Assembly: GCA_030635145.1 (NCBI GenBank)
Contig: DAOVZK010000003.1
Location: 38,732-102,731, forward strand
DNA length: 64,000 nt
Origin: Planctomycetota bacterium
Lineage (GTDB): Bacteria > Planctomycetota > Phycisphaerae > SM23-33
Reading direction: 5' to 3'
Below, in pieces: positions 1,621-56,817 of the stretch. The notes under the pieces were generated by a model, which worked only from the letters and a program-made list of their open reading frames with translations, was not told where the DNA came from and did not search any database. Numbering within the stretch: the stretch's first letter is position 1; each line of letters starts with the position of its first letter. The translations under genes and the position numbers were made by a program.

Positions 1621-1698
1621 ATTGCATAGGAATTTGTATTTGTTGCCCCCGCATTGAGGTAGGGTCGACAGAGTTCGTCCGAAGGACGTTAATTAAAA
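1621..1698 (+). promoter_or_regulatory. Conserved ~78-nt upstream element, copy 1 (before fusA)
   Basis: 69/79 identical (hand alignment) to the reverse complement of 20815-20893 and about 59/78 to that of 49835-49911. Ends 22 nt before the fusA ATG. Confidence 0.85.
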
Positions 1699-1720
1699 GT
1701 ATGAGAAAAGAGCATTAGTA

Positions 1721-3820
1721 ATGAAAAAACGAGGCAAAATCAGAAACATCGGCATCTCCGCCCACATCGACTCGGGTAAAACTACCCTGACCGAGCGGAT
1801 CCTGTACTACGCGGGGCGAATTCACCGCATGCAGGAGGTTCACGGTAACGACGGCGGCGGCGCGACGATGGACTTCATGGAGCTGGAACGCGAACGCGGA
1901 ATTACGATTACGTCGGCGGCAACTCAGGTCGACTGGGACGATAAGCTCATTAACATCATCGACACCCCCGGCCACGTGGACTTTACCGTTGAAGTCGAGC
2001 GTGCCTTGCGCGTGCTCGACGGTGCGATCATGGTGCTGTGCTCCGTCGGTGGTGTGCAAAGCCAATCCATAACCGTCGACCGCCAGATGAAACGCTACCG
2101 CGTCCCGCGAATCGCATTCGTCAACAAGATGGACCGCACCGGAGCAGACCCCGAGCGCGTTGCGATCGACCTTCGCGAAAAGCTCGGGCTAAACGTCGTG
2201 CCGATTCAGCTGAACATGGGCACCGGCGATGATTTCGTCGGCGTGATCGATTTGGTTACGATGAAGGCGATGACGTTTGACGGTGGCAGCGGCGAAGACG
2301 TCGCCATCGCCGAGATTCCCGAGCAGTACGCAGACGCAGCTGCCACCGCACGCGAAGAAATGCTCGAAGCCCTGAGCATGTTCAACGACGAAATGATGGA
2401 ACTGCTGCTGGAAGGCGACGACGTCGAAGAAAAGATGATCCACGAAACAATCTCCGAAGCCACCATCACGCGAGAAATCGTTCCGATGATGATGGGTTCG
2501 GCCTTTAAGAACAAAGGCATTCAGCCGCTGCTCGATGCCATTTGTCAATACCTCCCCAGCCCGCTGGATCGCACGAGTTTTGCCCGCGACCACGACAACG
2601 AAGGGGCAGAAACTCCGCTGGTTTGCGATCCCGACGCGGCGATGGTCTGTATGGTTTTTAAGATCGTCGACGAAACTTTCGGGCAGCTTAGCTACACACG
2701 AATTTACCAGGGCACAATCACCAAGGGTCAGTCCTACATCAATGCCCGCACCAACCGCAAGGTTCGCATCGGCAGAATCGTGCAAATGCACGCCAACGAC
2801 CGCGGCGATATTCCCGAAGCCAAGGCCGGTGACATTGTCGCACTCGTCGGTGTCGATTGTGCCAGCGGTGATACGTTCTGCGACGCAAGCGTAAACTTCT
2901 CGCTCGAAAGTATCTTCGTTGCCGATCCGGTTATCAGCTTGGCCGTCAAGCCCGAAGGCTCGGCCGACCAGGACAAAATGGGCAAGGCCTTAAACCGATT
3001 CATGAAGGAAGACCCAACGTTCCGCGTATCAAGCGATCCGGAAACCGGCGAAACCCTCATCGCCGGAATGGGCGAGCTGCACCTCGACGTTTACATCGAA
3101 CGAATGCGCCGCGAATACAACGCCACCGTCACTGTCGGTGCTCCGAACGTAAGCTATCGCGAAGCCCCGATGGTAGAAGCAGAATTCAACTACCGCCACA
3201 AAAAGCAAACCGGCGGTTCGGGTCAGTTCGCACATATCGTCGGACGAATGCAACCGATGGAAGCCGACGAAGAATCGACCTACGATTTCGTGGACAACAT
3301 CAGCGGCGGACGAATTCCCCGCGAATACATCCCCGCCGTCAACAAAGGCTTCGAGGCCGCGATGAAGGAAGGCCCCCTTGCCGGGTACGAAATCGTCGGC
3401 GTACGCATGCAACTCGACGACGGTTCATATCACCAGGTCGACTCGAGCGAAATGGCGTTCCGCACGGCCGGTAAAGCAGCCTTCCGCGAAGTCTTCACGA
3501 AAACCAAACCCGTACTCCTCGAACCGCTGATGCTCGTGGAAGTCGAAACTCCTCTCGAGTTCCAGGGCCCGGTCGTTGGCGACCTAAACTCGCGTCGCGG
3601 GGTGATTCTCGGTACCGAAAACCGTGAAAACCACGCAATTGTCCGGGCAGAAGTGCCGCTGGCGAACATGTTCGGTTACGCGACGGTAATTCGCAGCCTG
3701 TCAAAAGGCATGGCGACCTTCACGATGGAAATGGCCAAGTACGCCCGCGTCCCGCAGAAGATTTCGGAAGAGATCATCGAACGCCGCCGCAAAATGAAGG
3801 AAGAAAAAACGAAAAAGTAG
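1721..3820 (+). CDS. fusA: Elongation factor G (stand-alone copy, spdEFG1/mitochondrial EFG1-like)
   Basis: RNIGISAHIDSGKTTLTERILYY, RGITITSAAT, DTPGHVDF, NKMD, HKKQTGGSGQF; 699 aa; not in the rpsL-rpsG-fusA-tuf operon. Confidence 0.96.
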   Translation: MKKRGKIRNIGISAHIDSGKTTLTERILYYAGRIHRMQEVHGNDGGGATMDFMELERERGITITSAATQVDWDDKLINIIDTPGHVDFTVEVERALRVLDGAIMVLCSVGGVQSQSITVDRQMKRYRVPRIAFVNKMDRTGADPERVAIDLREKLGLNVVPIQLNMGTGDDFVGVIDLVTMKAMTFDGGSGEDVAIAEIPEQYADAAATAREEMLEALSMFNDEMMELLLEGDDVEEKMIHETISEATITREIVPMMMGSAFKNKGIQPLLDAICQYLPSPLDRTSFARDHDNEGAETPLVCDPDAAMVCMVFKIVDETFGQLSYTRIYQGTITKGQSYINARTNRKVRIGRIVQMHANDRGDIPEAKAGDIVALVGVDCASGDTFCDASVNFSLESIFVADPVISLAVKPEGSADQDKMGKALNRFMKEDPTFRVSSDPETGETLIAGMGELHLDVYIERMRREYNATVTVGAPNVSYREAPMVEAEFNYRHKKQTGGSGQFAHIVGRMQPMEADEESTYDFVDNISGGRIPREYIPAVNKGFEAAMKEGPLAGYEIVGVRMQLDDGSYHQVDSSEMAFRTAGKAAFREVFTKTKPVLLEPLMLVEVETPLEFQGPVVGDLNSRRGVILGTENRENHAIVRAEVPLANMFGYATVIRSLSKGMATFTMEMAKYARVPQKISEEIIERRRKMKEEKTKK

Positions 3821-9546: not shown

Positions 9547-9709
9547 GAAATACGAAATGCGAATATCGAAATGCTAAACAAGCACGAAATTCAAATTGCC
9601 AAAATATCAAAGGAATACTGGCGGCATATTGCATTCCTGTATCTGTTTTGGAAATTAGAGTTTTTTAATTCGATATTGTTTCGAATTTAGATTTTAGGAT
9701 TTCGATTTT
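9547..9709. repeat. AT-rich imperfect inverted-repeat element with heptamer periodicity (CGAAATN-type), copy 1
   Basis: Left arm GAAATAC-GAAATGC-GAATATC-GAAATGC; right arm complementary (TTTCGAATTTAGATTTTAGGATTTCGATTT). CGAATATCGAAAT(G/C)CTAAACAA is shared with 38067-38232. Confidence 0.75.
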
Positions 9710-19011: not shown

Positions 19012-20241
19012 TTATCGGTTCTTCGTAATTTCTTCTACGGCGACGGTGGCGTAGCAACCCGAGGATGCGGCGAACGTCAATTCGAGAAACTCACCATACG
19101 CATCGCAACCGGGGGTTATGGTAGGTTGTTCCAGCTTGTACCGCAAGGGACGCCGCGTGCCTTTTACCTTAAGCGATCCGATTTTGCCGAAGCTATCCAG
19201 CGATACTCCGTGCGATTCGATGGCGCGATTTTCGATTTCGCCCGGTTGTCCACCAGCCAACTGGCTTCGCGATCCGGGTAAGATTCCCGTCGCGCTTATC
19301 TCGAAATTTTCCGCCCGCAGCTGTTCGGCCTGCAGGTCTTCGATCGCAAACACTCCCCCGCCGTCGATTTTTTGCGCGAAGTCTCCGAGCATTACGCTAT
19401 CAAGCGATTCGATTCGCTCGGCGAGGATGTCGTTGAAGATCGCGCTTTGAAATGCGGAGATATAGAATCGTTTCATTCGTTTGTCAATCGCGCCAATCGC
19501 CGGGCCGGGCCGATGCTTTTTCTTGTAGGCCGACAACGCCTTTCGCTGATCGGCGTAATGGCGAGGCCAACGCTTGAGGGCACGGTCGAGCGTGTCTACG
19601 TCGAACGCATCGCGGGCTGCTTTGCAGTCGGGTGGGTCGCATTCCATCGGCCGTCCGAGAAAAATTTCCACGAACTCCTGCAACTCGTCGCACAAAAGCG
19701 CCTTTCCGAGGGCAGCTGTGTCACCGCGTGCGCCAAATCGCTGCGAACCAAAATAATTCGGCACGCCGCGCCGGGTAAGTACGTCTAATGTAGCTTGCCC
19801 CGCCGCTGCCTGCGACTGGCCAACCCCGCGAATTTTGATATTGAAAACATTACCCGCCAAATGTCCCGTCCGCAGCTTGTTCGTGTGCAAACCAGTCCAG
19901 ACGACCTGCATTTGCGGGTCGGTATACCCCGCGAGCTTTTCGGCGTCGGCGTGTTCGAGCGACATCATTTGCGAAGTTACCCCCACCGCATCTTTTAACC
20001 CCGCAACGCCAATGTCGCTCCCGCGAACGCCCATATATTTACCCAGCCGCGCCACCGCCACCGGCGTGGGAATCCCGCGTTTCTCGATGCGAAAATAAAC
20101 ATGCGACCCCTCACCGCAGGCGTCGTACAGCGGAATTTCCGTCACGCGAAAATCCTCCACTCGCTGTTTAATTTCACCGCCGATTCCAGGGAGCCCGCTA
20201 GTTAGGTATGGTAGGTCACGCATAAAGTTCACTTCGTCCAC
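19012..20241 (-). CDS. truD: tRNA pseudouridine(13) synthase TruD
   Basis: EDFRVTE, AGLKDAVGVTSQ (catalytic Asp), LAGNVFNI, GVPNYFGSQRFG, GCYATV. Confidence 0.95.
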   Translation of the reverse strand: MDEVNFMRDLPYLTSGLPGIGGEIKQRVEDFRVTEIPLYDACGEGSHVYFRIEKRGIPTPVAVARLGKYMGVRGSDIGVAGLKDAVGVTSQMMSLEHADAEKLAGYTDPQMQVVWTGLHTNKLRTGHLAGNVFNIKIRGVGQSQAAAGQATLDVLTRRGVPNYFGSQRFGARGDTAALGKALLCDELQEFVEIFLGRPMECDPPDCKAARDAFDVDTLDRALKRWPRHYADQRKALSAYKKKHRPGPAIGAIDKRMKRFYISAFQSAIFNDILAERIESLDSVMLGDFAQKIDGGGVFAIEDLQAEQLRAENFEISATGILPGSRSQLAGGQPGEIENRAIESHGVSLDSFGKIGSLKVKGTRRPLRYKLEQPTITPGCDAYGEFLELTFAASSGCYATVAVEEITKNR

Positions 20242-20786
20242 ATAACATCTGCAAATCCGCCTTGCTTGTTGGCCAGCCTTGCAAAAACAAACAGTAAATC
20301 GCCCAGTCGGTTGAGATACTGCAAAATTATCGGCGGCACATCGACTCCACTATCGATGAGCGTTACGACGGTTCGCTCGGTGCGGCGGGCGACGGTGCGG
20401 GCAACATGAAAGCGGGCTGCCAGTTCCGTCCCGCCGGGTAAAATGAAAGTCTGCAGCTCGCCGACGGTTTGCATTCCGTCGTCGATTTGTTTTTCCAAAC
20501 GTTCGATTGACGCGACGTTAATCAGATCCCCGAAGGCACCGAACAGCGGAGTTCCCACAGCCGCCAGCTGCGACCCGACATTGAACAGTTCGTTCTGAAT
20601 TTTCACGAGCACCTCGGCGAGGCTGGGGAGATTGTCCTTACCCGCTCCGCTGGCGCACAAACCCAGGTGCGAGCTTAGCTCGTCGATCGTGCCGATGGCC
20701 TCGATTTGCGGGGAAGCCTTGCTGACGGTCTCGCCGTCCATTCTGCAGGTTTTTCCCGCGTCGCCGTTTTTCGTGTACAGTGTCAT
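20229..20786 (-). CDS. ATP:cob(I)alamin adenosyltransferase, PduO type
   Basis: LYTKNGDAGKT, GTIDELSS, IQNELF, FILPGG, HVARTVARRTER, YLNRLGDLLFVFAR. Confidence 0.95.
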   Translation of the reverse strand: MTLYTKNGDAGKTCRMDGETVSKASPQIEAIGTIDELSSHLGLCASGAGKDNLPSLAEVLVKIQNELFNVGSQLAAVGTPLFGAFGDLINVASIERLEKQIDDGMQTVGELQTFILPGGTELAARFHVARTVARRTERTVVTLIDSGVDVPPIILQYLNRLGDLLFVFARLANKQGGFADVMWTK

Positions 20787-20814
20787 TCGCGATTCTCCGT
20801 GATTTTTCGCGCCA

Positions 20815-20893
20815 TTTTAATTACCGTCCTTCGGACGAACCTTATCGGCCCTACTTCAAACACGGGGCCAACAAATACAAATTCCTATGCAAT
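20815..20893 (-). promoter_or_regulatory. Conserved ~78-nt upstream element, copy 2 (before pduO-truD)
   Basis: Reverse complement ATTGCATAGGAATTTGTATTTGTTGGCCCC...GTTCGTCCGAAGGACGGTAATTAAAA; first 25 nt identical to 1621-1645; ends 28 nt before the pduO ATG. Confidence 0.85.
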
Positions 20894-20969
20894 GGACTTT
20901 TCGTATGCGTTGGTTATAATCGATTTCGATTTCAAAACAAAATTCAATCGCTGAAAGGCAGACGCAAAA

Positions 20970-27602: not shown

Positions 27603-28460
27603 ATGAAAGACTCTTTAGAACATCTACCGAAACCAAAACAGGCGGAACTTGAGCGTGTCGTTAAAAAAATATGCTCATACATCAACCCGGAGATGATAAT
27701 TCTCTACGGGTCATATGCACGCGGGGATTACAAGGAAGCAAAAGACATTGCTCCGGATTCCAAATCCGGCCACGCCTCCGATTACGATATTCTCGTTGTG
27801 ACGATGGGCGAATCGGTGGCCGAGGACGCGGGGTTATGGCATACGATCAATTCGGAATGCTGGAAGATGAAGCTATCCGCACATCCGAAAATTATCAGGG
27901 AAGATATCGAAAAACTTAACCGCCACTTCGAGCTGGGTTACTATTTTTACGTCGATATAAAAAGAGATGGCATAATCCTCTACGACACCGAAAAAATAAC
28001 CCTCAAAGACCGGCGCGAACTGACCCCGCAGGAAGACAAAAAACTTGTTCAGGAATACTATGACCATTGGTTTGAAGGGTCTCAAAGATTCTACAGGCAT
28101 TTTGAAATAGGTATGGAAGAAGAAGATTTTAAGGGTGCTGCCTTCCACCTGTTTATGACTGCCGAAGCCTGTTACAAATCTATCCTTCTTGTTTTTACAA
28201 AATACTGCCCGAAAGAGCATCATTTGGGATTGATCGGTGAGCTGATATTCCAATTTAACGTTGAGTTGAAAGACATTTTTCCCAATGACTCCCAAGAGCA
28301 TCAGCAGTTATTTGAATTACTTGATTACGCCTATATCGGGACAAGATACGACCCGAAATATACGGCTACCAAAGAGCAGTTGGAGTATTTGGGAAATCGA
28401 GTCCAGCGGCTGCGAGGTATCACTGAAAAGATGTGTACAGAAAAAATCGAAAACTTATAG
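27603..28460 (+). CDS. Fused minimal nucleotidyltransferase (MNT) + HEPN protein
   Basis: ILYGSYARG and SDYDILVV (Pol-beta-like NTase), then a helical HEPN-like half (AAFHLF...EACYK...EHHL...LDYAYIGTRY); AT-rich. Confidence 0.85.
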   Translation: MKDSLEHLPKPKQAELERVVKKICSYINPEMIILYGSYARGDYKEAKDIAPDSKSGHASDYDILVVTMGESVAEDAGLWHTINSECWKMKLSAHPKIIREDIEKLNRHFELGYYFYVDIKRDGIILYDTEKITLKDRRELTPQEDKKLVQEYYDHWFEGSQRFYRHFEIGMEEEDFKGAAFHLFMTAEACYKSILLVFTKYCPKEHHLGLIGELIFQFNVELKDIFPNDSQEHQQLFELLDYAYIGTRYDPKYTATKEQLEYLGNRVQRLRGITEKMCTEKIENL

Positions 28461-35019: not shown

Positions 35020-35096
35020 TGTCATTGCGAACGTAGTGAAGCAATCTCATCTTCAGCCTTTTAGATTGCCGCGTCGCTGCGCTCCTCGCAATGACA
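35020..35096 (-). repeat. TGTCATTGCGA...TCGCAATGACA palindromic repeat, copy 2 (inverted)
   Basis: TAGATTGCCGCGTCGCTGCGCTCCTCGCAATGACA is the exact reverse complement of the left arm at 56741; lies between convergent thrC and hypE. Confidence 0.9.
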
Positions 35097-35197
35097 AACC
35101 GCGAGCCTCGGTGGCAATTATTATCCACGCCTTCGTCGCTGGCGACGGGGACCCAGTAGGGTGCAAGTCGGGAGTGACACAGGGAAAGCCAACACCA

Positions 35198-36436: not shown

Positions 36437-36605
36437 TTTTGACAGGATTACAGGATTAACTATGAATTATTAAAAAGAAAACAAGAACCAAAACTATTAA
36501 CTGCCAACTGCAAACACCATTGCAACGAAGACAAATTCCTATGTAAATTAATCCTGATTAACAGGATTTTTTTGGCCTATATTCTATCCTGTGATCCTGT
36601 CAAAA
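36437..36605. repeat. TTTTGACAGGAT...ATCCTGTCAAAA inverted-repeat element (MITE-like), copy 1
   Basis: 20-bp terminal inverted repeats with 1 mismatch; the right 23 nt are identical to copy 2; contains a degenerate 5' half of the 78-nt element (about 36500-36547, minus strand). Confidence 0.8.
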
Positions 36606-36682
36606 TTCTTCTGTGAATGGTTACAAAAAACGCGACACAACCGAAGTTGCGCCGCGATTTTTGAATCGTACAATTCGAGAAT

Positions 36683-38066: not shown

Positions 38067-38232
38067 AAATTCTAATCCCGAATATCGAAATCCTAAACAA
38101 ATTCAAATATCTAATTTCTAAGCGCTAAACAAGAAAGCATTGCTCCTCATTGATTTATAGCTCGCTTGTTTTGAACATTCGGATTTTAATTTTCGTATTT
38201 GTTTCGCTTTTCGATATTCGTATTTCTTATTT
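38067..38232. repeat. AT-rich heptamer-periodic inverted-repeat element, copy 2
   Basis: CGAATATCGAAATCCTAAACAA...TTGTTTCGCTTTTCGATATTCG; related to 9547-9709; fills the spacer between the oxidoreductase and the aminotransferase. Confidence 0.75.
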
Positions 38233-38233
38233 C

Positions 38234-40587: not shown

Positions 40588-40630
40588 GGGCGTTGCAATG
40601 CTCCTGTTTGAATAACTGTTCACGCGAAAA

Positions 40631-40748
40631 TTTTGACAGGATAACAAGATGGTCTGATTGATAATTTTCAATTTCCAATTTCAAATTTACAATTGGAATT
40701 CGTAAATGGGAAATTGCCAATTTGCTCTATCCTGTGATCCTGTCAAAA
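40631..40748. repeat. TTTTGACAGGAT...ATCCTGTCAAAA element, copy 2
   Basis: Left TTTTGACAGGATAACAAGAT, right ATCCTGTGATCCTGTCAAAA; the interior is an AATTTCC/AATTGG heptamer-like palindrome. Confidence 0.8.
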
Positions 40749-49172: not shown

Positions 49173-49835
49173 CTAATCGAACGTGTTCGCCGACGGGCAG
49201 AGCTTTTTGGCAGACAGTGGACAGGCTTGGCAGTCGGGTTTGCGAGCGTTGCAATGCGATCGCCCGAGAAATACAATCAGGTGCCCGAAAAGTCCCCAAT
49301 CTTTTTGCGGAACAAGATCCATTAAGTCGATCTCGATTTTTTCTGGGGTGGTTTGCTTCGTCAGGCCCAGCCGTGCCGAAATTCTTTTAACGTGCGTGTC
49401 TACCACGACGCCTTCGTTTTTGCCGAACGCATTCGACAGCACGACGTTGGCGGTTTTGCGAGCCACGCCTGGTAGCAACAGCAGTTCGGCCATCGTCTGC
49501 GGAATCTTGCCTCCGAAGTCTTTGATGATCATCGCCGCTGCCCCGCGAATATTCTTGGACTTGTTGCGATAAAAACCCGTCGAACGGATATCCTGCTCGA
49601 GAGTTTCCTGCGGAACGCCCGCGTAATCTTCAGCTGTGCGATACTTGCGGAACAGATCCTGGGTAACAATGTTTACCCGCTTGTCGGTGCACTGGGCCGA
49701 CATAATCGTCGCCACCAGCAGCTCCAGCGGGTTGGAATGAACCAGTTCGCAGTGAGCGTTTGGGAAGTATGACTTCAGCGAGCGAAAAATTTTTCCCGTT
49801 CGCTGGCAGCGTGTGGTTTGTGATTCTCGCGGCAT
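49173..49835 (-). CDS. nth: Endonuclease III
   Basis: ELLVATIMSAQCTD, HhH LPGVARKTANVVL, VDTHV, 4Fe-4S CNARKPDCQACPL...C. Confidence 0.96.
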   Translation of the reverse strand: MPRESQTTRCQRTGKIFRSLKSYFPNAHCELVHSNPLELLVATIMSAQCTDKRVNIVTQDLFRKYRTAEDYAGVPQETLEQDIRSTGFYRNKSKNIRGAAAMIIKDFGGKIPQTMAELLLLPGVARKTANVVLSNAFGKNEGVVVDTHVKRISARLGLTKQTTPEKIEIDLMDLVPQKDWGLFGHLIVFLGRSHCNARKPDCQACPLSAKKLCPSANTFD

Positions 49836-49911
49836 TTCAATAACCGTCCTTCGAACGAACTTTATCTACCCTATTTCAGCGCGGGGGTAATAATACGAAT
49901 CCCTCTACATT
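49835..49911 (-). promoter_or_regulatory. Conserved ~78-nt upstream element, copy 3 (abuts nth ATG)
   Basis: Reverse complement ...TTACCCCCGCGCTGAAATAGGGTAGATAAAGTTCGTTCGAAGGACGGTTATTGAAA(TG); fills nearly the whole 80-nt intergenic gap. Confidence 0.8.
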
Positions 49912-49915
49912 TGAA

Positions 49916-51328
49916 TTAGTCGGTGGGTTGAGTTGTCGGTTGTTTTTGCTTCGCCGCCGGTTTCGTCGTCGGTTGAGTTGTCGTTTGGGAAACCGCCCGC
50001 TGGACTTTCTGCTCCATGGTTTCTCCGCTTTCGTAAGACTGCGAGTGGATTTCGACAGACAGCGGAGGTTTCCACGCCTCGGGTGGTAAAGCAAATTCTA
50101 CTTCCGGGAGGTCGAGTTTGCGAACGCGAACGGTGCTGAGTTCGGGGACCTCGGCGACGTATTTTTCGTCTGGCGACAGAGCCCATGTTCGTTCGGCAAA
50201 GGGTATGATATATTTTGCCTGGTAGTCGACGGCGTATGTTTTTCCGTCGTCGCGAGGAATCACCGCCAGCCATCCCGGGCGAAGCGGCCTGATGTCGCGA
50301 ATTTGGGCCTGGTACAGCGGAAGTCGCGTTTGATGTTTGGTTTCGAAGATGTCAACCTTCCACGGATCGAGTTGGATGATGCAGGTCCCCAACGCCATAG
50401 TCCAACCGAGGACGTAGTTCCCGTCCTTCGTCCAGCCATGCACGTAAAATTGGTCGACACCGAAATATTTTCCGATTTCGTCGCTAAAATCTTTGGTCTT
50501 GTAGGTTTCGCGATCTACAAGAATCGCTCCGCCTTGTCCCGCCTGATCCCAAGGCCAACCGAACGCGCAAAATACCTTCGAGCTGTCGGGGCTCCACGCC
50601 ACGCCCTTGCTCTTAGCCGACGTCTGCCGCAGCGACGGTGAGATTTCGCCCGTCTTGACATCCAGAATTCGCATGTCCAGCTGCCCGACAATAAGCATCG
50701 CCTCGCGATCCGGCGCCCAATACTCCTCAAACGGTTCGATATCGTTGCTGGTAATTGACGAGAACAGCTCCACTCGTTCAGGCAGCGGCTTGGTTACAAG
50801 TTGGCGATAAATTTTCTTTACTATGCTGCGGGAACCATCGGTTGTTGATTGCAGCTGTACTGAATAAACGAGAGTGTCGGGGCCTGTCCAGTGGCAGGTG
50901 TCGATAAGCTCTTTTTCGCTGCGTTTTTTTTCGGGCGTCACCCGCCAATAATCTCCGCTGGCGATGTCGACGACGTCGATTCGCTTTTCACGAACCAGAA
51001 GTATCGACCGCCCATTAAGCGAAAATTCGATATGCTTGAGTTTCGCACGTGAAAGGTAGCTCGGTGCCTTGACGACTTTCTTGACACGTACAACTTTGGA
51101 TTTTTCCGGGAAGTCGACGCTGCTAAGACCGACGGACTCCGTTCGTTCCATCGCAAAATATCCCTCGTCCATGGTTTGCACGAGTTTTTGCTTTTCCCAG
51201 ATGTAGGCCACCATCGTTCCGTCGTGCGAAAACGCGACTTCCGTGGCGTCGTAGACGTAGCGAACGCATCCGCCAAACGGCAAGGCAATGATACCCAGCA
51301 GAAACAAAACTGTAAGACGGTATGTCAT
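49916..51328 (-). CDS. Lipoprotein with TolB/WD40-like beta-propeller repeats
   Basis: Lipobox FGGC; AFSHDG, FSLNG, WAPD, AWSPDS, LSPD repeats; C-terminal TTTQP/TTQP tail. Confidence 0.75.
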   Translation of the reverse strand: MTYRLTVLFLLGIIALPFGGCVRYVYDATEVAFSHDGTMVAYIWEKQKLVQTMDEGYFAMERTESVGLSSVDFPEKSKVVRVKKVVKAPSYLSRAKLKHIEFSLNGRSILLVREKRIDVVDIASGDYWRVTPEKKRSEKELIDTCHWTGPDTLVYSVQLQSTTDGSRSIVKKIYRQLVTKPLPERVELFSSITSNDIEPFEEYWAPDREAMLIVGQLDMRILDVKTGEISPSLRQTSAKSKGVAWSPDSSKVFCAFGWPWDQAGQGGAILVDRETYKTKDFSDEIGKYFGVDQFYVHGWTKDGNYVLGWTMALGTCIIQLDPWKVDIFETKHQTRLPLYQAQIRDIRPLRPGWLAVIPRDDGKTYAVDYQAKYIIPFAERTWALSPDEKYVAEVPELSTVRVRKLDLPEVEFALPPEAWKPPLSVEIHSQSYESGETMEQKVQRAVSQTTTQPTTKPAAKQKQPTTQPTD

Positions 51329-51333
51329 ATTTC

Positions 51334-54300
51334 TCATTTATTTTTCCCGGCGAGATACTTGTTGATTATGCTAGCAGTGCGTCGGCCTGAATCTATAGCA
51401 GTCGCCACGTACGCCTGCGAAGCTATCAGGTCGCCCGCAGCGAAAACTCCGGGTCTGCTCGTGGCGTCATTTTCGTCAACTTCGAGCGAACCGTTCTCCG
51501 TCAAAACCAGCCCAAGCTGTTCGGCGACCTTTTTATCAACTTTCGGCTCAAAACCCATCGCAAGTACAACAATATCTGCAGGAATATCGAATTCGCTGCC
51601 ATCGATTTCCTCGCACACCTGCTTAGCTCCGTTGGAATTGTAGCTTACGCGCACCGCTCGCAGCGACCGAACCTGCCCGCCGTCCCCGGACAACACTGTC
51701 GTTTTGACGCTCCAATGCTTCTCTACGCCCTCGGGTGTGGCGGAGTTGGCGACTTTGTATTGCGGCAGGATTTCCAGCTGATGAATCTCGCGGGCACCTT
51801 GTTTTAAGGCGGCCTCGACGCAGTCTTCGCCCGTCAGGCCTCCGCCGATAATCGCCACAGTCTTACCGCTTGCGTTGATGCTCGGAATCCCATCGCCCGC
51901 GAGAATTTGCGACCGCAGATAATCCGAGGCTGTCACAATTCCGCCAAGGTCGCACCCGGGAACGTTCAGCTGGCGCGATAACTGACGGCCGGTGGTAAGG
52001 CAGGTCGCGTCAAACTCGGCGGCCAGCTCGGCAGCGTTGATGTCAACACCGACTTGCGACCCGCATTTAAATTCTATGCCCTCGCCGCGCAGCTGTTCCA
52101 ATCGCCGGTCGATCAGCGTCTTGTCTAACCGCTCAGCTGGAATTGCGTAACGAAGCAGCCCGCCGGGTTCATCATCTTTTTCGAATACCGTTACGGCGTG
52201 ACCCTTGCGAGCGAGTTGTTGCGCCGCAGCCAGCCCGCTCGGGCCAGCACCAACGATGGCAATCTTTTGGCCGGTGGAAGTTTTCGGGGCTTGCGGAGTG
52301 ATCCATCCATTTTCAAACGCGATGTCGATGATCTGCTTTTCGGTCTGCATGATTCCCGACGGGAAATCGTGCAGGGCATTGTGGCAGGTGTCCTGGCAGA
52401 ACGCGGGGCAGATCAGGGCAGTGAATTCGGGGAAATTGTTGCTTTCGTGCAGCACGGTGGCGGCTTGTTTCCACTTACCGCTCTCGGCGAGTTCCATCCA
52501 GCGAGGGATGTCGGACTTCAGCGGGCACCCGCGGTCGCTGCACGAGGGCGATTTGCACGACATGCACATTGGCGAACCAAGTCGCGCGACACCCTGAGCG
52601 TATTGCTCAGGCGAGGCGTAGGCAAACTCGGCGATGTGTTTTTCGTACCGCGCGCGATAGCTTAGTTCGCGCCGGTTCCATCTTTTCAACAACGGACGAA
52701 TCCACGCCATGCGTTTCAGCAGTTCCAGCTGATGTTTCTGCAGCGACAAACGAAGCAAAACTTCGCGCCCGGCGAACGACAGTTTGCGCTTCCACAGATA
52801 TCGATACGAAATCCGGTCGCCGTTGGCTGGGTTGACGTTGTACTTTTTGCGGTCGTGGGCAAATTTCTCAGGTGCCGTCCCAAGCTCGGCCTCGAATACG
52901 CTATCCTTGATTAACATCGCACTGGCGAGGTTGTGGATGACGGCTTTGGTGGCGGCGTAGTCGTGCTTGGAGGTGTCCTTGGCGTAAATTTCGGTGACCT
53001 GATCCAAATACCGTTTGGCGTACGGGATTCTGCCCCATCGCATGCAATCGTAGCTGCGAACGACGACGTCGCGCTTGAGCTGCTCGTCGAGGTTGGGCAT
53101 GTTTTCGATGCTGGTGGTGACCATTTCGCGCAGCTGTTCGGGGAGCTTGCTGCCCTTGCCGTATCGCCGCGTCGCCCAACGAATTTTTGAGTCCAATGTT
53201 TCTTTCCACCCATTTGGTTCGGGTGCACCCAGAAAAAGATCCTGCTGCTCGACGAGTTTTCGCCCCATGTTGAAGGCGTAGAGATTTTTCTTGAAGTCGA
53301 CGCGGATGGCGTCTTTGATCGACCACGCCATCGAGTGCATCGAGATCGGAATCAGGCCCTGCTGGAAGGCGTAACCCATCATCATGATGTTCGCGTAGAT
53401 TTTGCTCCCGAGATACTTTTCGCAAATTCGCGAAATGTCGCGGGCGAGGAAATATTCTTTGCGGGTGTGATGGCGGATGAACTCGACGAGCTGATCGGTA
53501 TCGAAATCATCCCAGCCCATGAGAACTGTGCTGGTTGCAACTTTTGCGGTGTTGATGACGGCGGCGGTTTGTTGCGACGAGGCAGCCCGGGTTCGGCCTT
53601 TCGGGTCAAGCACGCGGGCGGCTTCGAGAACGTCGACGCCCAGTAGCAGGTCGGCCTTGCCGTAGGGCATGATGCCGGTGACGGGTTGCTTGGCGATGTT
53701 AAACACAACCTGCGACGTTACACCACCGTTGCGGATGGCCATGCCCTTCTTGTCGAAAAACGTCACATCGTAGCCTTCGTAATGCCCCGCCCGCACGAGA
53801 ATGCTCGTCGCCAGGCCGATACCCATCCCCCCAACACCCGTCAGGCAGCACCACCACGTGTCACTCGTGGGACGTTTGCGAGGTTCGGGAATTTTGTCAA
53901 GCCCCAGCTCGGGAACCAGCGACTTCGGGGGACGTTTGCGATAGACGGTCAGTTTTTCGAACGAGTCGCAGGCACCCACTCTTTCGCAGGCACCGTCGAC
54001 GACGCACCAGCTCATGGCGGTGTCCACTTTCGGGCCGTAATCGGTTTGCACGTGTTGCAATCCCGGGCACCCGGTAATTTCGGTACACGAAAGACAGAAG
54101 CAGCAGATGTCCTGATTGACATTCATGTACTGTTTTTTGGGCAGGAAGTTTTTTTCCTTAACGAGTGCACGTTCGTCGCGGCGGCGCCGGCGGATACGGG
54201 TAATTCCGCATTCCTTGTCGGAGATCACAACCTTCACTCCGTCGGCGAGGAACATGTGTTCGAGCAGTTCCGTGTAGGCCTTGCGGTCTTCGGGGTTGGT

Positions 54301-56070
54301 CGAAACGATGTTGATGTCGGTTCGGCTGGCCATACCGCGAAGCACGTCCTGAATATCCTGCCGCGGAGTCACGTTCCCCAGCAAATCGTATTCCACACCA
54401 GGTGTCGGTTGATGCCCCGTCATGCCGGTGGTGCTGTTGTTGAGAATTATAAACGTAATGTCCTGCTTGAGCTTGATCGCCTGCGAAATCGCAATCGCAC
54501 CGGAGTGGAAAAACGTCGAGTCGCCCATGAAGACGACTTCCTTGTTGGTTGTAAACGGATCGGTGCCCGACCCGGTTCCGCCACCAAGCCCCATGCCGGA
54601 ATAGTCGTGCATGAGATCGTTTGTCGGTGGAAACATCAGCAGCGTGTAGCAGCCAGTGTCGCCGTGGAACATCAGGTCGACGGGTTCGCTGTTGTGGGCC
54701 TTCTTCATGTATCGCGGATCCATGAAGCGGCGTTTGATATCGAGGCAGAGCGAGGCCGAGTCGCGGTGCGGGCATCCGGGGCAGAAAACCGGCAGCCGCA
54801 GGGGTATATTCACGTCGCCGAGGTCAACGTTTTGCGTAGACTGCAGCATTTGCAGCTCTTGCGAGATGCTGTCCGATGCGCGAGTCGAGACGCTGCTATC
54901 CACGCCGAATTTCTGAATCAACGGCCCGACGTGAAGCATAATAATCGACGGATCCAAACCGAGGTTCGCCGGGATGCCTTTGAGGTCGCCGGGGAACTGC
55001 TTCCCGTAGACTTCGGTGTTGGCAAATGCGCCGTTGGGGTCGGCTTGGCGCTGTCGCATTACGATTTGGGCTACTTGTTCTTCGAGGAATCCGCGGCGTT
55101 CTTCGATGACGACGATTTTTTCGCATTGCTGCGCGAGTTCTTCGATAAGCTGCGGGTCGGCTGGGTAGCTCATGCCGAATTTAAGGATCGGGAATTCGCC
55201 CAGTACGCCCAGCTCGAACAAACCCTGCACAAGATAGTCGTGCCCAAGCCCGGCGCTGATGAATCCCAACGGCCGTTTGCCGTTTTTCGCGGGATGATCG
55301 ATGCGGTTCATGCCACACTCGCGGGCGACCTGCATTGCGATTGCGTGACGTTTCGGGAACGACGCTTCGCGCCACCAGGTTCGTGGTGGTAATAGGACGC
55401 GTTTGTCGACATCGATATTTTTGGTCACGAGGTCGAACTTGTTCAACACGCCGACTTCGGGATAGTGGTTGGGGGAGCATTGCACCGTTCCCCCGCCGTC
55501 GGCGAGGTTGGTCGTCAACACGAAACCGGCGATCAGTTCGCTTCTGCTGGAAATTTTAAATGATATATCGACGAAGTCTTTTACTTCCTGCGCGTTGGAC
55601 GGTTCGATGACGGGAATGTACAGATGCTTCGACAAAAAGCGGCTGTCGGATGGCACCTGAGTCGAGTCGCTCCATGGATCGTCGCCGTAGACGACGATGG
55701 CTCCGCCTTGCTTATGTGCCCCTGCCAGATTCGCCAGCGCCAGCGCATCGGCAGCTACGTGCAGCCCGACGCTTTTCATGGTTATCATCACGCGCACGGG
55801 CAACGTTTGCGACCCGTTAAGCATCGCCGCCGACAGGGCTTCGTTGTTGTTGATAACAGCCCGGATGCCCTTTTCGGCCAGCAGTTCCTTAAGCGCCGTC
55901 AGGGAATCGAAATAACCCGCAATCGGGCTGCCGGGATATCCGCCCAGCAGGTGCACTCCGCCTTCAGACTCCAAGGCGCCCTTCACCAGCAACTCATTGC
56001 CGGTAAAGATCTCAGTGCCGCTTTCCGCTAAAAATCTGCGTTCAGTTTTCATCAGCGATATTGTACGCAA
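51334..56070 (-). CDS. Fused indolepyruvate:ferredoxin oxidoreductase-type enzyme (IorA-IorB-DUF6537-like) + GltD-like Fe-S flavoprotein
   Basis: GYPGSP, FCPGCPHR, GDTGCY, GDSTFFHSG (TPP), CCFCLSC...GCP ferredoxin, GVGGMG (gamma/IorB); then CMSCKSPSC...GCP, ICPAFC...C, GAGPSGL (FAD), IIGGGLTGEDC, GVFAAGD. Confidence 0.9.
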   Translation of the reverse strand: MRTISLMKTERRFLAESGTEIFTGNELLVKGALESEGGVHLLGGYPGSPIAGYFDSLTALKELLAEKGIRAVINNNEALSAAMLNGSQTLPVRVMITMKSVGLHVAADALALANLAGAHKQGGAIVVYGDDPWSDSTQVPSDSRFLSKHLYIPVIEPSNAQEVKDFVDISFKISSRSELIAGFVLTTNLADGGGTVQCSPNHYPEVGVLNKFDLVTKNIDVDKRVLLPPRTWWREASFPKRHAIAMQVARECGMNRIDHPAKNGKRPLGFISAGLGHDYLVQGLFELGVLGEFPILKFGMSYPADPQLIEELAQQCEKIVVIEERRGFLEEQVAQIVMRQRQADPNGAFANTEVYGKQFPGDLKGIPANLGLDPSIIMLHVGPLIQKFGVDSSVSTRASDSISQELQMLQSTQNVDLGDVNIPLRLPVFCPGCPHRDSASLCLDIKRRFMDPRYMKKAHNSEPVDLMFHGDTGCYTLLMFPPTNDLMHDYSGMGLGGGTGSGTDPFTTNKEVVFMGDSTFFHSGAIAISQAIKLKQDITFIILNNSTTGMTGHQPTPGVEYDLLGNVTPRQDIQDVLRGMASRTDINIVSTNPEDRKAYTELLEHMFLADGVKVVISDKECGITRIRRRRRDERALVKEKNFLPKKQYMNVNQDICCFCLSCTEITGCPGLQHVQTDYGPKVDTAMSWCVVDGACERVGACDSFEKLTVYRKRPPKSLVPELGLDKIPEPRKRPTSDTWWCCLTGVGGMGIGLATSILVRAGHYEGYDVTFFDKKGMAIRNGGVTSQVVFNIAKQPVTGIMPYGKADLLLGVDVLEAARVLDPKGRTRAASSQQTAAVINTAKVATSTVLMGWDDFDTDQLVEFIRHHTRKEYFLARDISRICEKYLGSKIYANIMMMGYAFQQGLIPISMHSMAWSIKDAIRVDFKKNLYAFNMGRKLVEQQDLFLGAPEPNGWKETLDSKIRWATRRYGKGSKLPEQLREMVTTSIENMPNLDEQLKRDVVVRSYDCMRWGRIPYAKRYLDQVTEIYAKDTSKHDYAATKAVIHNLASAMLIKDSVFEAELGTAPEKFAHDRKKYNVNPANGDRISYRYLWKRKLSFAGREVLLRLSLQKHQLELLKRMAWIRPLLKRWNRRELSYRARYEKHIAEFAYASPEQYAQGVARLGSPMCMSCKSPSCSDRGCPLKSDIPRWMELAESGKWKQAATVLHESNNFPEFTALICPAFCQDTCHNALHDFPSGIMQTEKQIIDIAFENGWITPQAPKTSTGQKIAIVGAGPSGLAAAQQLARKGHAVTVFEKDDEPGGLLRYAIPAERLDKTLIDRRLEQLRGEGIEFKCGSQVGVDINAAELAAEFDATCLTTGRQLSRQLNVPGCDLGGIVTASDYLRSQILAGDGIPSINASGKTVAIIGGGLTGEDCVEAALKQGAREIHQLEILPQYKVANSATPEGVEKHWSVKTTVLSGDGGQVRSLRAVRVSYNSNGAKQVCEEIDGSEFDIPADIVVLAMGFEPKVDKKVAEQLGLVLTENGSLEVDENDATSRPGVFAAGDLIASQAYVATAIDSGRRTASIINKYLAGKNK

Positions 56071-56699: not shown

Positions 56700-56740
56700 A
56701 AAAAAATCCGTTTTGCCTTGTTGAAAACATGACTTTAGCT

Positions 56741-56817
56741 TGTCATTGCGAGGAGCGCAGCGACGCGGCAATCTAAGATATGAGAATCGAGATTGCTTCG
56801 CTACGCTCGCAATGACA
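56741..56817 (+). repeat. TGTCATTGCGAG...CTCGCAATGACA palindromic repeat, copy 3
   Basis: See 1152-1247 and 35020-35096. Confidence 0.9.

Follow-up and report, generated by a model that had tools for sequence, protein, structure and literature searches.

A small dispersed repeat family of Sedimentisphaerales-like Phycisphaerae and its possible role as an RNA module in leaders and intergenic spacers

A stretch of 64,000 nt from the genome of a Planctomycetota bacterium (Phycisphaerae, SM23-33; GenBank assembly GCA_030635145.1, contig DAOVZK010000003.1, positions 38,732 to 102,731; hereafter the window) contained three full copies and one decayed copy of an element of about 85 nt, located upstream of genes for elongation factor G (fusA), a PduO-type adenosyltransferase (pduO), endonuclease III (nth) and an AIR-synthase-like protein. 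The source is a Sedimentisphaerales-like metagenome-assembled genome, and the window also matches scaffold_87 of ENA ERZ23498442 and GCA_023138805.1. The element is an undescribed small dispersed-repeat family of a Sedimentisphaerales-like Phycisphaerae clade, and the family is real, narrow in range and apparently low in copy number. It is of a kind already known, that of dispersed intergenic repeats or reused leaders, to which it adds a member. Because the copies have sense orientation, lie in leaders or between co-directional genes, show strand-specific compensatory pairing, a conserved box and ragged ends, and had no mobilising gene among the window genes, the reading tentatively favoured here is that the element could be a portable transcribed leader or intercistronic RNA module. 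The sequences compared show directly that the family exists, has spread and is structured; transcription and a molecular role are inferred.

Copies, conserved boxes and hairpins

An earlier note on this DNA had described three homologous copies in front of fusA, pduO-truD and nth, and their positions, orientation and neighbouring genes were borne out, the copies themselves being supported by profile search (nhmmer), a covariance model (CM) and shuffled controls. The profile search of the window recovered 1621-1700(+), 20813-20893(-) and 49833-49911(-) with E-values between 8e-26 and 5e-23, the next-best match having an E-value of 0.6, and the three full window copies (c1, c2 and c3) scored 82-100 bits with the covariance model. 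Neither a 21-nt pattern for the 5' box nor a 25-nt pattern for the 3' box was matched in any of 100 dinucleotide shuffles of the window. The full window copies were mutually 75-87% identical, with 68 of 78 identical positions (87%) between c1 and c2, including all of the 25 nt of the 5' box at 1621-1645, and 58 of 77 between c1 and c3; these values match the 69/79 and about 59/78, and the identity of the first 25 nt of c1 and c2, that had been obtained by hand. The copies and the parts of c1 were as follows.

1614-1700, + strand: copy c1, in the fusA 5' leader, ending about 22 nt before the ATG at 1721 (CM 100.5 bits, nhmmer E-value 8e-26)
1621-1645, + strand: 5' box of c1 (ATTGCATAGGAATTTGTATTTGTTG), AU-rich and mostly single-stranded, its last 7 nt being the 5' foot of hairpin P1
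1639-1672, + strand: long imperfect hairpin P1 of c1 (arms 1639-1651 and 1660-1672), predicted by RNA folding
1676-1688, + strand: hairpin P2 of c1 (CGTCC-GAA-GGACG), which includes the Shine-Dalgarno-like AAGGA and is predicted to fold in every full copy
20813-20900, - strand: copy c2, located between the divergent genes coaX and pduO, 26 nt from the start codon of the latter (ATG at 20786; CM 98.9 bits)
36490-36554, - strand: decayed copy c4 (CM 17 bits, E-value 0.15-0.22)
49833-49918, - strand: copy c3, occupying the whole spacer between a lipoprotein-like gene and nth (nth ATG at 49835; CM 81.6 bits)

The decayed copy c4 was also recovered by repeat finding, its segment 36504-36546 being 77% identical to c2 over 43 nt. 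It kept the 5' box (TAATTTACATAGGAATTTGT) and part of P1 and had lost P2, and it was located between a class-III aminotransferase gene and the AIR-synthase-like gene, sense to both.

Outside the window, a full-length member (L012, 105.6 bits) was found in the Phycisphaerae metagenome-assembled genome CAXXMC01, whose EF-G is 82% identical to that of the window. A second site in the same genome (L006, the same site as L013; 78 bits) kept the 5' box and P1, with a weak P2, and a metagenome contig (L003, 80 bits) possessed both boxes in near-perfect form around an unrelated 33-nt middle. A scan of a genome collection with the 5' box pattern returned nine matches, two of which were true members (both in CAXXMC01); the other seven, in unrelated phyla, were dismissed as chance (profile E-value at least 0.36, or no score). 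The 3' box pattern had no match in 185,579 species genomes, a collection without the source species, and in its strict form a single match (L003) in 241 million metagenome records. About 115 kb of DNA from relatives with 77-89% EF-G or 81-83% Nth identity contained no additional copy, and a blastn search of plasmid and phage sequences with the element was empty. Two scans of viral contigs were made, of which one was empty and the other returned a single chance match (L017) with no similarity in the downstream sequence.

The genes immediately downstream of c1-c3 encode EF-G (1721-3820), the PduO-type adenosyltransferase (20229-20786, - strand) followed by TruD, and endonuclease III (49173-49835, - strand). 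Across the family, the downstream genes (EF-G, PduO/TruD, Nth, AIR-synthase-like, glycoside-hydrolase-like and one of no known kind) had no common theme, in agreement with the earlier view of a repeat that stands upstream of functionally unrelated genes and has spread independently of its neighbours. Every copy occupies a spacer between genes and is oriented like the gene that flanks or follows it, and all five informative copies (c1, c3, c4, L003 and L006) are in sense orientation, a weak trend (one-sided p ~0.03) that leaves out c2, located in a divergent spacer, and L012, for which the upstream side was not retrieved. The earlier statement that the three copies are sense and adjoin a start codon holds for the orientation, but the adjacency appears largely incidental: the ATG beside c1 belongs to the native leader, the one beside c2 was apparently copied from nth, and c4, L012, L003 and L006 are located about 60-210 nt from the start codon.

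The element begins with an AT-rich lead-in (TAATTYA in five of seven copies) and the 5' box. P1 is an imperfect hairpin of 10-13 bp (TTTGTTG.../...CGACAGA) with a conserved foot (TTTGTTG/CGACARR), continuous over 11 bp in c2, and is joined to P2 by a GTT linker; the tail after P2 reads TTAATTRAAA. The first hairpin had been described as a 5-bp stem with outer pairs that vary together. A hairpin with compensatory changes was indeed found, but the 5-bp stem is only the tip of the longer P1, and the TGCCC/GGGTC outer pair is in fact a T-C mismatch. Likewise, the constant 13-nt loop applies to the window copies, where the tip is CCC/GGG with a 12-13-nt loop, but not to L012 (UCCA/UGGA, 8-nt loop) or L006 (UCCGC/GCGGG, 6-nt loop). 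P2 and its single change to a G-U pair were confirmed. Terminal inverted repeats were lacking, as noted before, the only terminal complementarity being short and AT-rich.

Structure counts were taken over the six full members. P1 had 82% of its cells paired and five pairs changed on both sides, P2 had 97% paired, and all helices together had 86% paired compared to 36-50% when the partners were slid. In total, six pairs were changed on both sides, a number attained by 1 of 500 shuffles. The pair of alignment columns 29/58, for example, read G-C, G-U or A-U across members, and a U-G pair at columns 31/56 was kept in five of the six. Because of this and many other G-U pairs, the sense strand folded 3-8 kcal/mol better than the antisense strand. 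Both hairpins still formed when the full fusA leader was folded. A candidate closing stem (5' AAUUG / 3' UAAUU, alignment columns summing to 90) had 79% of its cells paired, and in L006 a change from AAUU to AGUU on both of its strands kept the pairs as G-U. The three-way junction that such a stem would make is weakly supported and unproven, since the stem is of low complexity and overlaps an alternative small hairpin (P0).

The degree of conservation was compared between the window and CAXXMC01, whose fusA genes are 44% identical at third codon positions and whose fusA leaders are unalignable. At unrelated loci, c1 and L012 shared 64 of 77 positions, with 24 of 25 in the 5' box and 29 of 32 in the 3' box. 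Overall, the two boxes were 78-100% conserved between genomes, and the middle was 45-80% identical, with mostly pair-preserving changes. Such a pattern would be consistent either with selection on the sequence of the boxes and on the structure of the hairpin, or with a recent move between genomes.

The fusA, nth and pduO loci

The following features, adjoining the copies, bear on how each of these loci may have acquired the element.

1480-1507, + strand: predicted native fusA promoter (TTGCAA-16-TAGAAT), sigma-70-like, from promoter scanning; outside the repeat
20799-20815, - strand: 3' flank of c2 (ATGGCGCGAAAAATCAC), resembling the first 16 nt of nth
49916-51337, - strand: gene for a 473-aa lipoprotein-like beta-propeller protein, which together with c3 parts nth from its ancestral neighbour; outside the repeat

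The fusA locus was compared with those of L004 and L005 (both 89% EF-G identity), L007 (87%) and L006 (82%), and the element was absent from the orthologous fusA leaders of all four. The fusA promoter region was kept in L004 and L005 (CCTTGCA(A/T)AT...AATAGAAT; L004 reads TTGCAT-16-TAGAAT), as were the last ~30 nt before the fusA ATG (AAAAT/GTA.GAGAAAAGAGCAT..TAATG), and about 45-55 nt of unrelated leader took the place of the element, which in the window starts 107-114 nt downstream of the promoter. Because the orthologous leaders are without the element and both the promoter and the end of the leader are conserved, c1 is best read as a lineage-specific gain, by insertion or replacement within the fusA 5' leader. 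A diverged copy in the fusA leader of L007 or L004 was considered and dropped, the covariance model giving nothing there. The ATG beside c1 is part of the native leader, the same GTATGA...GAGCAT being present in the element-free L007.

This native leader contains a tiny upstream open reading frame (uORF; window 1694-1723, ATG AGA AAA GAG CAT TAG). The uORF of L007 (~1031-1063) reads ATG AAA CAA GAG CAT AAG TAA, with a stop codon that overlaps the fusA ATG as TAATG, and L004 has ACG in place of its ATG. The uORF may serve translational coupling or leader-peptide control of the stand-alone fusA.

Upstream of nth, the element was absent in relatives with 81-83% Nth identity, in which nth directly follows a POR/GltD-like gene across an element-free gap of 4-58 nt. 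The POR/GltD-like gene of the window ends at 51334, and tblastn placed the ancestral neighbour at 51334-52035. The gene for the 473-aa protein lies in between, and c3 fills the entire 80-nt spacer between this gene and the co-directional nth, the TAA stop of the inserted gene being inside the 5' end of the element and the AAGGA of c3 lying 11 nt before the nth ATG. From this comparison, c3 sits at an insertion junction. The ATG that abuts c3 is the native nth start, because the N-terminus MPRESQ... is conserved in orthologues across Phycisphaerae. The possibility that the element itself carries a start codon was rejected on this conservation and on the native origin of the ATG beside c1.

Compared to three related metagenome contigs, the 473-aa gene is inserted between a gene for a 1578-aa POR/TPP/GltD-like fusion protein and nth (49916-56070, - strand). 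The encoded protein has a signal peptide ending in ...LPFGGC, and the ATG of the gene overlaps the upstream stop codon as ATGA. Its homologues were distant only, with 31-44% identity in an exhaustive search, and a word-index search found none.

The 3' flank of c2 (ATGGCGCGAAAAATCAC) matched the start of nth (ATGCCGCGAGAATCAC) at 14 of 17 positions, a score that was reached by 69 of 20000 shuffles, and the match includes the G of the second nth codon of the window (CCG), which is CCA in relatives. A uORF of 10 codons starts in this flank and ends in a TGA that overlaps the ATG of pduO. On the simplest reading, c2 apparently derives from the nth locus, from which about 17 nt of flanking coding sequence were copied as well, and this would imply an imprecise, recombination-like mechanism of copying. 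In addition, c2 has the 5' box of c1 but a c3-like sequence around GGACGG, a mosaic that suggests gene conversion. The predicted promoter of the divergent coaX (20893-20920) begins exactly at the 5' edge of c2.

A possible RNA module, known families and rival explanations

As a portable RNA module, the element would be transcribed within mRNA and would present an AU-rich single-stranded box (AUUGCAUAGGAAUUUGUA), a long imperfect hairpin with a free but pair-keeping tip, a short GC hairpin with GAAGGA, and a UAAUUAAA tail. The AU-rich box includes two candidate RNase E-like R-N-A-U-U sites just upstream of a putatively protective hairpin, R-N-A-U-U being the kind of site that RNase E prefers. 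At nth, where the element abuts the start codon, P2 and the tail could also supply the Shine-Dalgarno sequence. Spread would occur by rare imprecise copying of DNA, through recombination or template switching, sometimes dragging along a few flanking bases, without a transposon of defined ends. The copies would persist through a role at the RNA level, such as mRNA processing, mRNA stability or the binding of a general RNA-binding factor.

Several observations weigh against this reading. Transcription through the element and an effect at the RNA level are themselves inferred, and a convincing upstream promoter was found for c1 only, those of c2, c4 and L003 being weak matches made by eye. A promoter-like site separates the L006 element from the gene that follows, so that the element there would belong to a 3' untranslated region or a read-through transcript and not to a 5' leader. 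The copies end anywhere from 0 to about 210 nt before a start codon, a range that no single translational mechanism fits. With six full members, the covariation is suggestive and not statistically secure; folding gave modest z-scores, from -0.4 to -2.3 with +1.6 for the poorly folding c3, and the antisense strand of two copies also has a z-score of about -3. The middle hairpin, swapped for unrelated sequence in L003, is possibly dispensable, and P2 is barely kept in L006 and lost in c4. Finally, conserved ends around a variable middle would also be expected from recognition by a transposase.

ERIC/IRU, Correia and pneumococcal BOX elements are short repeats of transcribed spacers that form RNA stem-loops and can have orientation-dependent effects on mRNA processing, mRNA stability or the expression of neighbouring genes. 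In the modular BOX elements, the end modules are conserved and the middle varies, and ERIC and Correia elements carry terminal inverted repeats, accompanied in Correia by TA target duplications. The element resembles BOX in its succession of a 5' box, a variable hairpin and a 3' box. It has neither the terminal inverted repeats of ERIC and Correia nor target duplications, shares no sequence similarity with any of these elements and has a copy number that is seemingly much lower. ERIC/IRU, Correia and BOX have been named as promoter- or RNA-active repeats (PMC3575422). The features of miniature inverted-repeat transposable elements (MITEs) were lacking in the element, where the only terminal complementarity was the short AT-rich TAATTcAa/TAATTaAc and no consistent flanking duplication was found.

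Repetitive extragenic palindromes (REPs) have a stem of 8-9 bp (CGTC type) or 5-13 bp (GTAG type) with the tag left unpaired at one end, are probably transcribed, are mostly located downstream of genes, often as head-to-head dimers, and have been reported from the Planctomycetes/PVC group (Di Nocera et al. 2013, PMC3733652). The element resembles them as a small hairpin-forming repeat, in which P2 begins with CGTC and P1 has GTAG in two copies. A tagged REP was nevertheless rejected: the CGTC is paired within a 5-bp stem, GTAG occurs in two of six members (ATAG, GTGG or GCGG in the others), and the copies are single, upstream of genes and sense. The miniature elements (PATEs) derived from IS200/IS605 and the IS91-type elements have asymmetric ends with subterminal hairpins and no terminal inverted repeats, and IS91-type elements can carry along 3' flanking sequence. 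The element is similar in its asymmetric ends, its lack of terminal inverted repeats, its subterminal hairpins and its strand-specific structure. Against a PATE stand the differing 5' flanks, where a conserved tetra- or pentanucleotide target would be expected, the lack of similarity between P1 and P2 in sequence and size, and the absence of a replication-strand bias, the GC skew being flat across the window and the orientation of the copies following the genes on both strands. An integron attC site was rejected as well, as RYYYAAC is lacking, the 3' GTTAATT and GTTATTG misfit GTTRRRY, and the two hairpins are separate. The resemblance to lambda nut boxB and rrn boxA was superficial only.

Among structured RNAs, no gathering-score match to Rfam 15 was found in the whole window, and permissive scans of c1, c2, c3 and L012 returned only unrelated families with E-values above 1, none of them recurring, so that the earlier remark that the element is not recognisable as a known Rfam family stands. 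ARAGORN detected no tRNA or tmRNA gene in the window. Riboswitches of the c-di-GMP-I/GEMM type are structured 5'-UTR RNAs that precede many unrelated genes and combine a conserved junction with covarying stems. The element shares with them its position upstream of unrelated genes and its conserved junction nucleotides, has stems with suggestive compensatory changes, and differs in having no Rfam match or expression platform, a very narrow spread, and no counterpart in orthologous leaders. A gene-specific riboswitch is unlikely given the orthologous fusA and nth leaders without the element, the lack of a shared gene theme, and the absence of a visible expression platform. No copy had a terminator-like site, within it or immediately following it, on the strand of the element itself.

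The earlier note had offered a promoter cassette (CCCCG-17/18-(T/C)AnnnT) as one explanation, which the further members do not support: CCCCG is replaced by ACTCC in L012 and L006, and promoter scans of both strands found no copy with an internal sigma-70-like -35/-10 pair spaced by 16-18 nt. All predicted promoters were outside the element, namely those of fusA (1480-1507) and coaX (20893-20920) and one downstream of the element in L006. A YARRGT motif, with A2 and T6 of the -10 hexamer, was conserved at one aligned position (TAAGGT, CAGAGT, TAAAGT, CAAAGT), and its best pairing by eye, with TTGNCN, has a 20-nt spacer. Candidate sites for sigma-54 (TGGCAC-N5-TTGC), extracytoplasmic function sigma factors (GGAAT-N18-GTT), the Bacteroidetes consensus (TAnnTTTG) and an extended -10 were judged by eye and were not conserved across copies, and a sigma-28 motif (GCCGATAA) occurred in c2 only.

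Putative mobile promoters have been defined as sequences of 50 nt or more that are 80% or more identical and precede non-paralogous genes in one genome, and their authors considered that many of them may be RNA elements instead of promoters and that copies can reach into coding sequence (PMC3575422). By this operational definition c1 and c2 belong among them, with 68 of 78 identical positions upstream of non-paralogous genes; they span about -107 to -22 from the start codon, in partial overlap with the -150 to -50 window of that study. The element is like putative mobile promoters (Matus-Garcia, Nijveen & van Passel 2012; PMC3575422) in being a similar non-coding upstream sequence that also occurs in another genome, with an unknown mechanism of mobilisation. 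These promoters are an operational class, not a mechanism, and the element differs from them by its lack of a promoter consensus, by the location of c1 downstream of the gene's own promoter and by its strand-specific pairing.

Of the other explanations, the next most probable after the RNA module, though still unlikely, is selfish or neutral non-autonomous mobile DNA, whose boxes and hairpins would be recognition sites for a transposase or recombinase encoded elsewhere in the genome (for example a single-strand Y1 enzyme of the IS200/IS605 or RAYT type, or a rolling-circle IS91-like enzyme). Its sense orientation would then stem from the removal of harmful insertions by purifying selection and not from a host function. 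The non-orthologous positions, the conserved ends with a middle that is variable or, in L003, swapped, and the absence of terminal inverted repeats, as in the elements of Y1 and IS91-like enzymes, fit this idea, and the compensatory changes do so equally, as single-strand transposases also need the hairpin. The 3' flank apparently co-copied with c2 resembles one-ended rolling-circle read-through, and the high similarity of the boxes between genomes is compatible with horizontal spread. However, the genes of the window are ordinary chromosomal ones (gyrB, priA, pgi, thrC, rsgA and others) with no transposase, integrase or reverse transcriptase among them, and no transposase was present among the annotated genes in about 72 kb of the source genome. 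Moreover, the 5' junction flanks (TTCA, TTTA, TTCA, TTAA, TTTA, CTTG, GTCC) share no conserved target tetranucleotide, target-site duplications were lacking and both ends are ragged, and the orientation follows the genes instead of the replication strand. The copy number appears low, the strict 5' box occurring twice in CAXXMC01 and the strict 3' box once among the metagenome records, and the two hairpins are unlike each other, whereas the left and right ends of IS200/IS605 share a hairpin type.

A mobile promoter for an alternative or lineage-specific sigma factor, combined with a ribosome-binding site and rewiring the transcription of the adjoining gene, is improbable. It would account for copies that are upstream of and sense to unrelated genes, for the 87% identity of c1 and c2 over 78 nt and for the conserved YARRGT; no convincing same-strand promoter was found upstream of c2, and nth, with its ancestral tight coupling replaced, would need new expression signals. 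The missing -35/-10 pair, the 20-nt spacer, the variable CCCCG and the misfit of other sigma consensus sequences all argue against it, as do the second promoter-like site downstream of the element in L006 and the use of canonical promoters in this clade, such as TTGCAA-16-TAGAAT at fusA, about 107 nt upstream of c1. Strand-specific G-U pairs and compensatory changes would also be unexpected for a double-stranded promoter. Still less probable is a sensing RNA, an aptamer that would bind a protein or act like a riboswitch in response to a global signal. It would fold into a three-way junction of the weak AU closing stem, P1 and P2, with the conserved junction strand of 14 nt as its binding core, and would have been copied to many genes, as second-messenger riboswitches are. 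Conserved unpaired nucleotides do flank apparently covarying helices, the boxes show strong conservation between genomes, the genes downstream are as diverse as those of global-signal riboswitches, and the closing stem is 79% paired in one register, with the AGUU double change of L006 keeping its pairs. That stem, however, has only A-U and G-U pairs within a self-complementary AATT, which could arise by chance, and it overlaps P0; in addition, an expression platform is lacking, the start-codon distance is variable, close relatives lack the element in their orthologous leaders, large collections yielded very few members, L003 replaces P1 altogether, and no Rfam relative was found. The most far-reaching form of a regulatory role would be a long shot: a new class of portable ~85-nt three-helix cis-regulatory RNA, whose conserved AU-rich junction strand would bind a protein, small RNA or small-molecule signal of global reach, and which Phycisphaerae would copy from leader to leader so as to bring unrelated genes, fusA, nth and pduO-truD among them, into one post-transcriptional regulon.

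Neighbouring repeats and significance

Other repeats were observed in the window and near the external members. A separate MITE-like repeat (1151-1247, 35061-35097 and 56740-56817), with inverted termini TTGTCATTGCGAGGAGC(A/G)(T/C)AGCGACGCGGCAA ... TTGCTTCGCTACGCTCGCAATGACA, was 94-100% identical among its copies, one of which shares the lon-fusA spacer with c1. An AT-rich repeat of about 55 nt (...CGAATATCGAAATNCTAAACAA...) was present at 9547-9602 and as an inverted pair at 38067-38121 and 38178-38233, 56 nt apart. The motif AATTTTGACAGGAT(C/A)ACA(G/A)GAT, which contains TTGACA and is located just upstream of c4, occurred in inverted orientation at 36586-36623 and 40613-40650 and could be a promoter or operator motif of the lineage.

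In CAXXMC01, a palindromic MITE-like pair (TGTCATACCCGCGCAAGCGGGTATCC ... GGATTCCCGCTTGCGCGGGAATGACA) followed by a promoter-like ATGACA-16-TATTAT was located between the element and the next gene (L006, 4640-4730). On the L003 contig, about 110 nt following the element (875-980) contained terminator-like hairpins (GCTCTGGTTGGCGAGGGC, then TTTTGTT), after rsfS and before a gene starting MASELKKELTERF...; these hairpins could be an attenuator-type leader downstream of the repeat. Adjoining gyrB in the window, 27603-28460(+) encodes a 285-aa protein with a C-terminal HEPN domain, which could be a toxin or a defence-type RNase.

Phycisphaerae are abundant and mostly uncultured, and their gene-expression signals are almost unknown. 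Within this group, the element is about 90% conserved between genomes with saturated silent sites, and its strand-specific hairpin has been kept by compensatory change. If it is only a low-copy selfish repeat, its value would be limited to annotation. A leader module copied between unrelated genes would exemplify regulatory rewiring through the reuse of non-coding DNA, and, if this reading is true, the element would help to trace the factor by which it is read, or could serve planctomycete genetics as a portable part.

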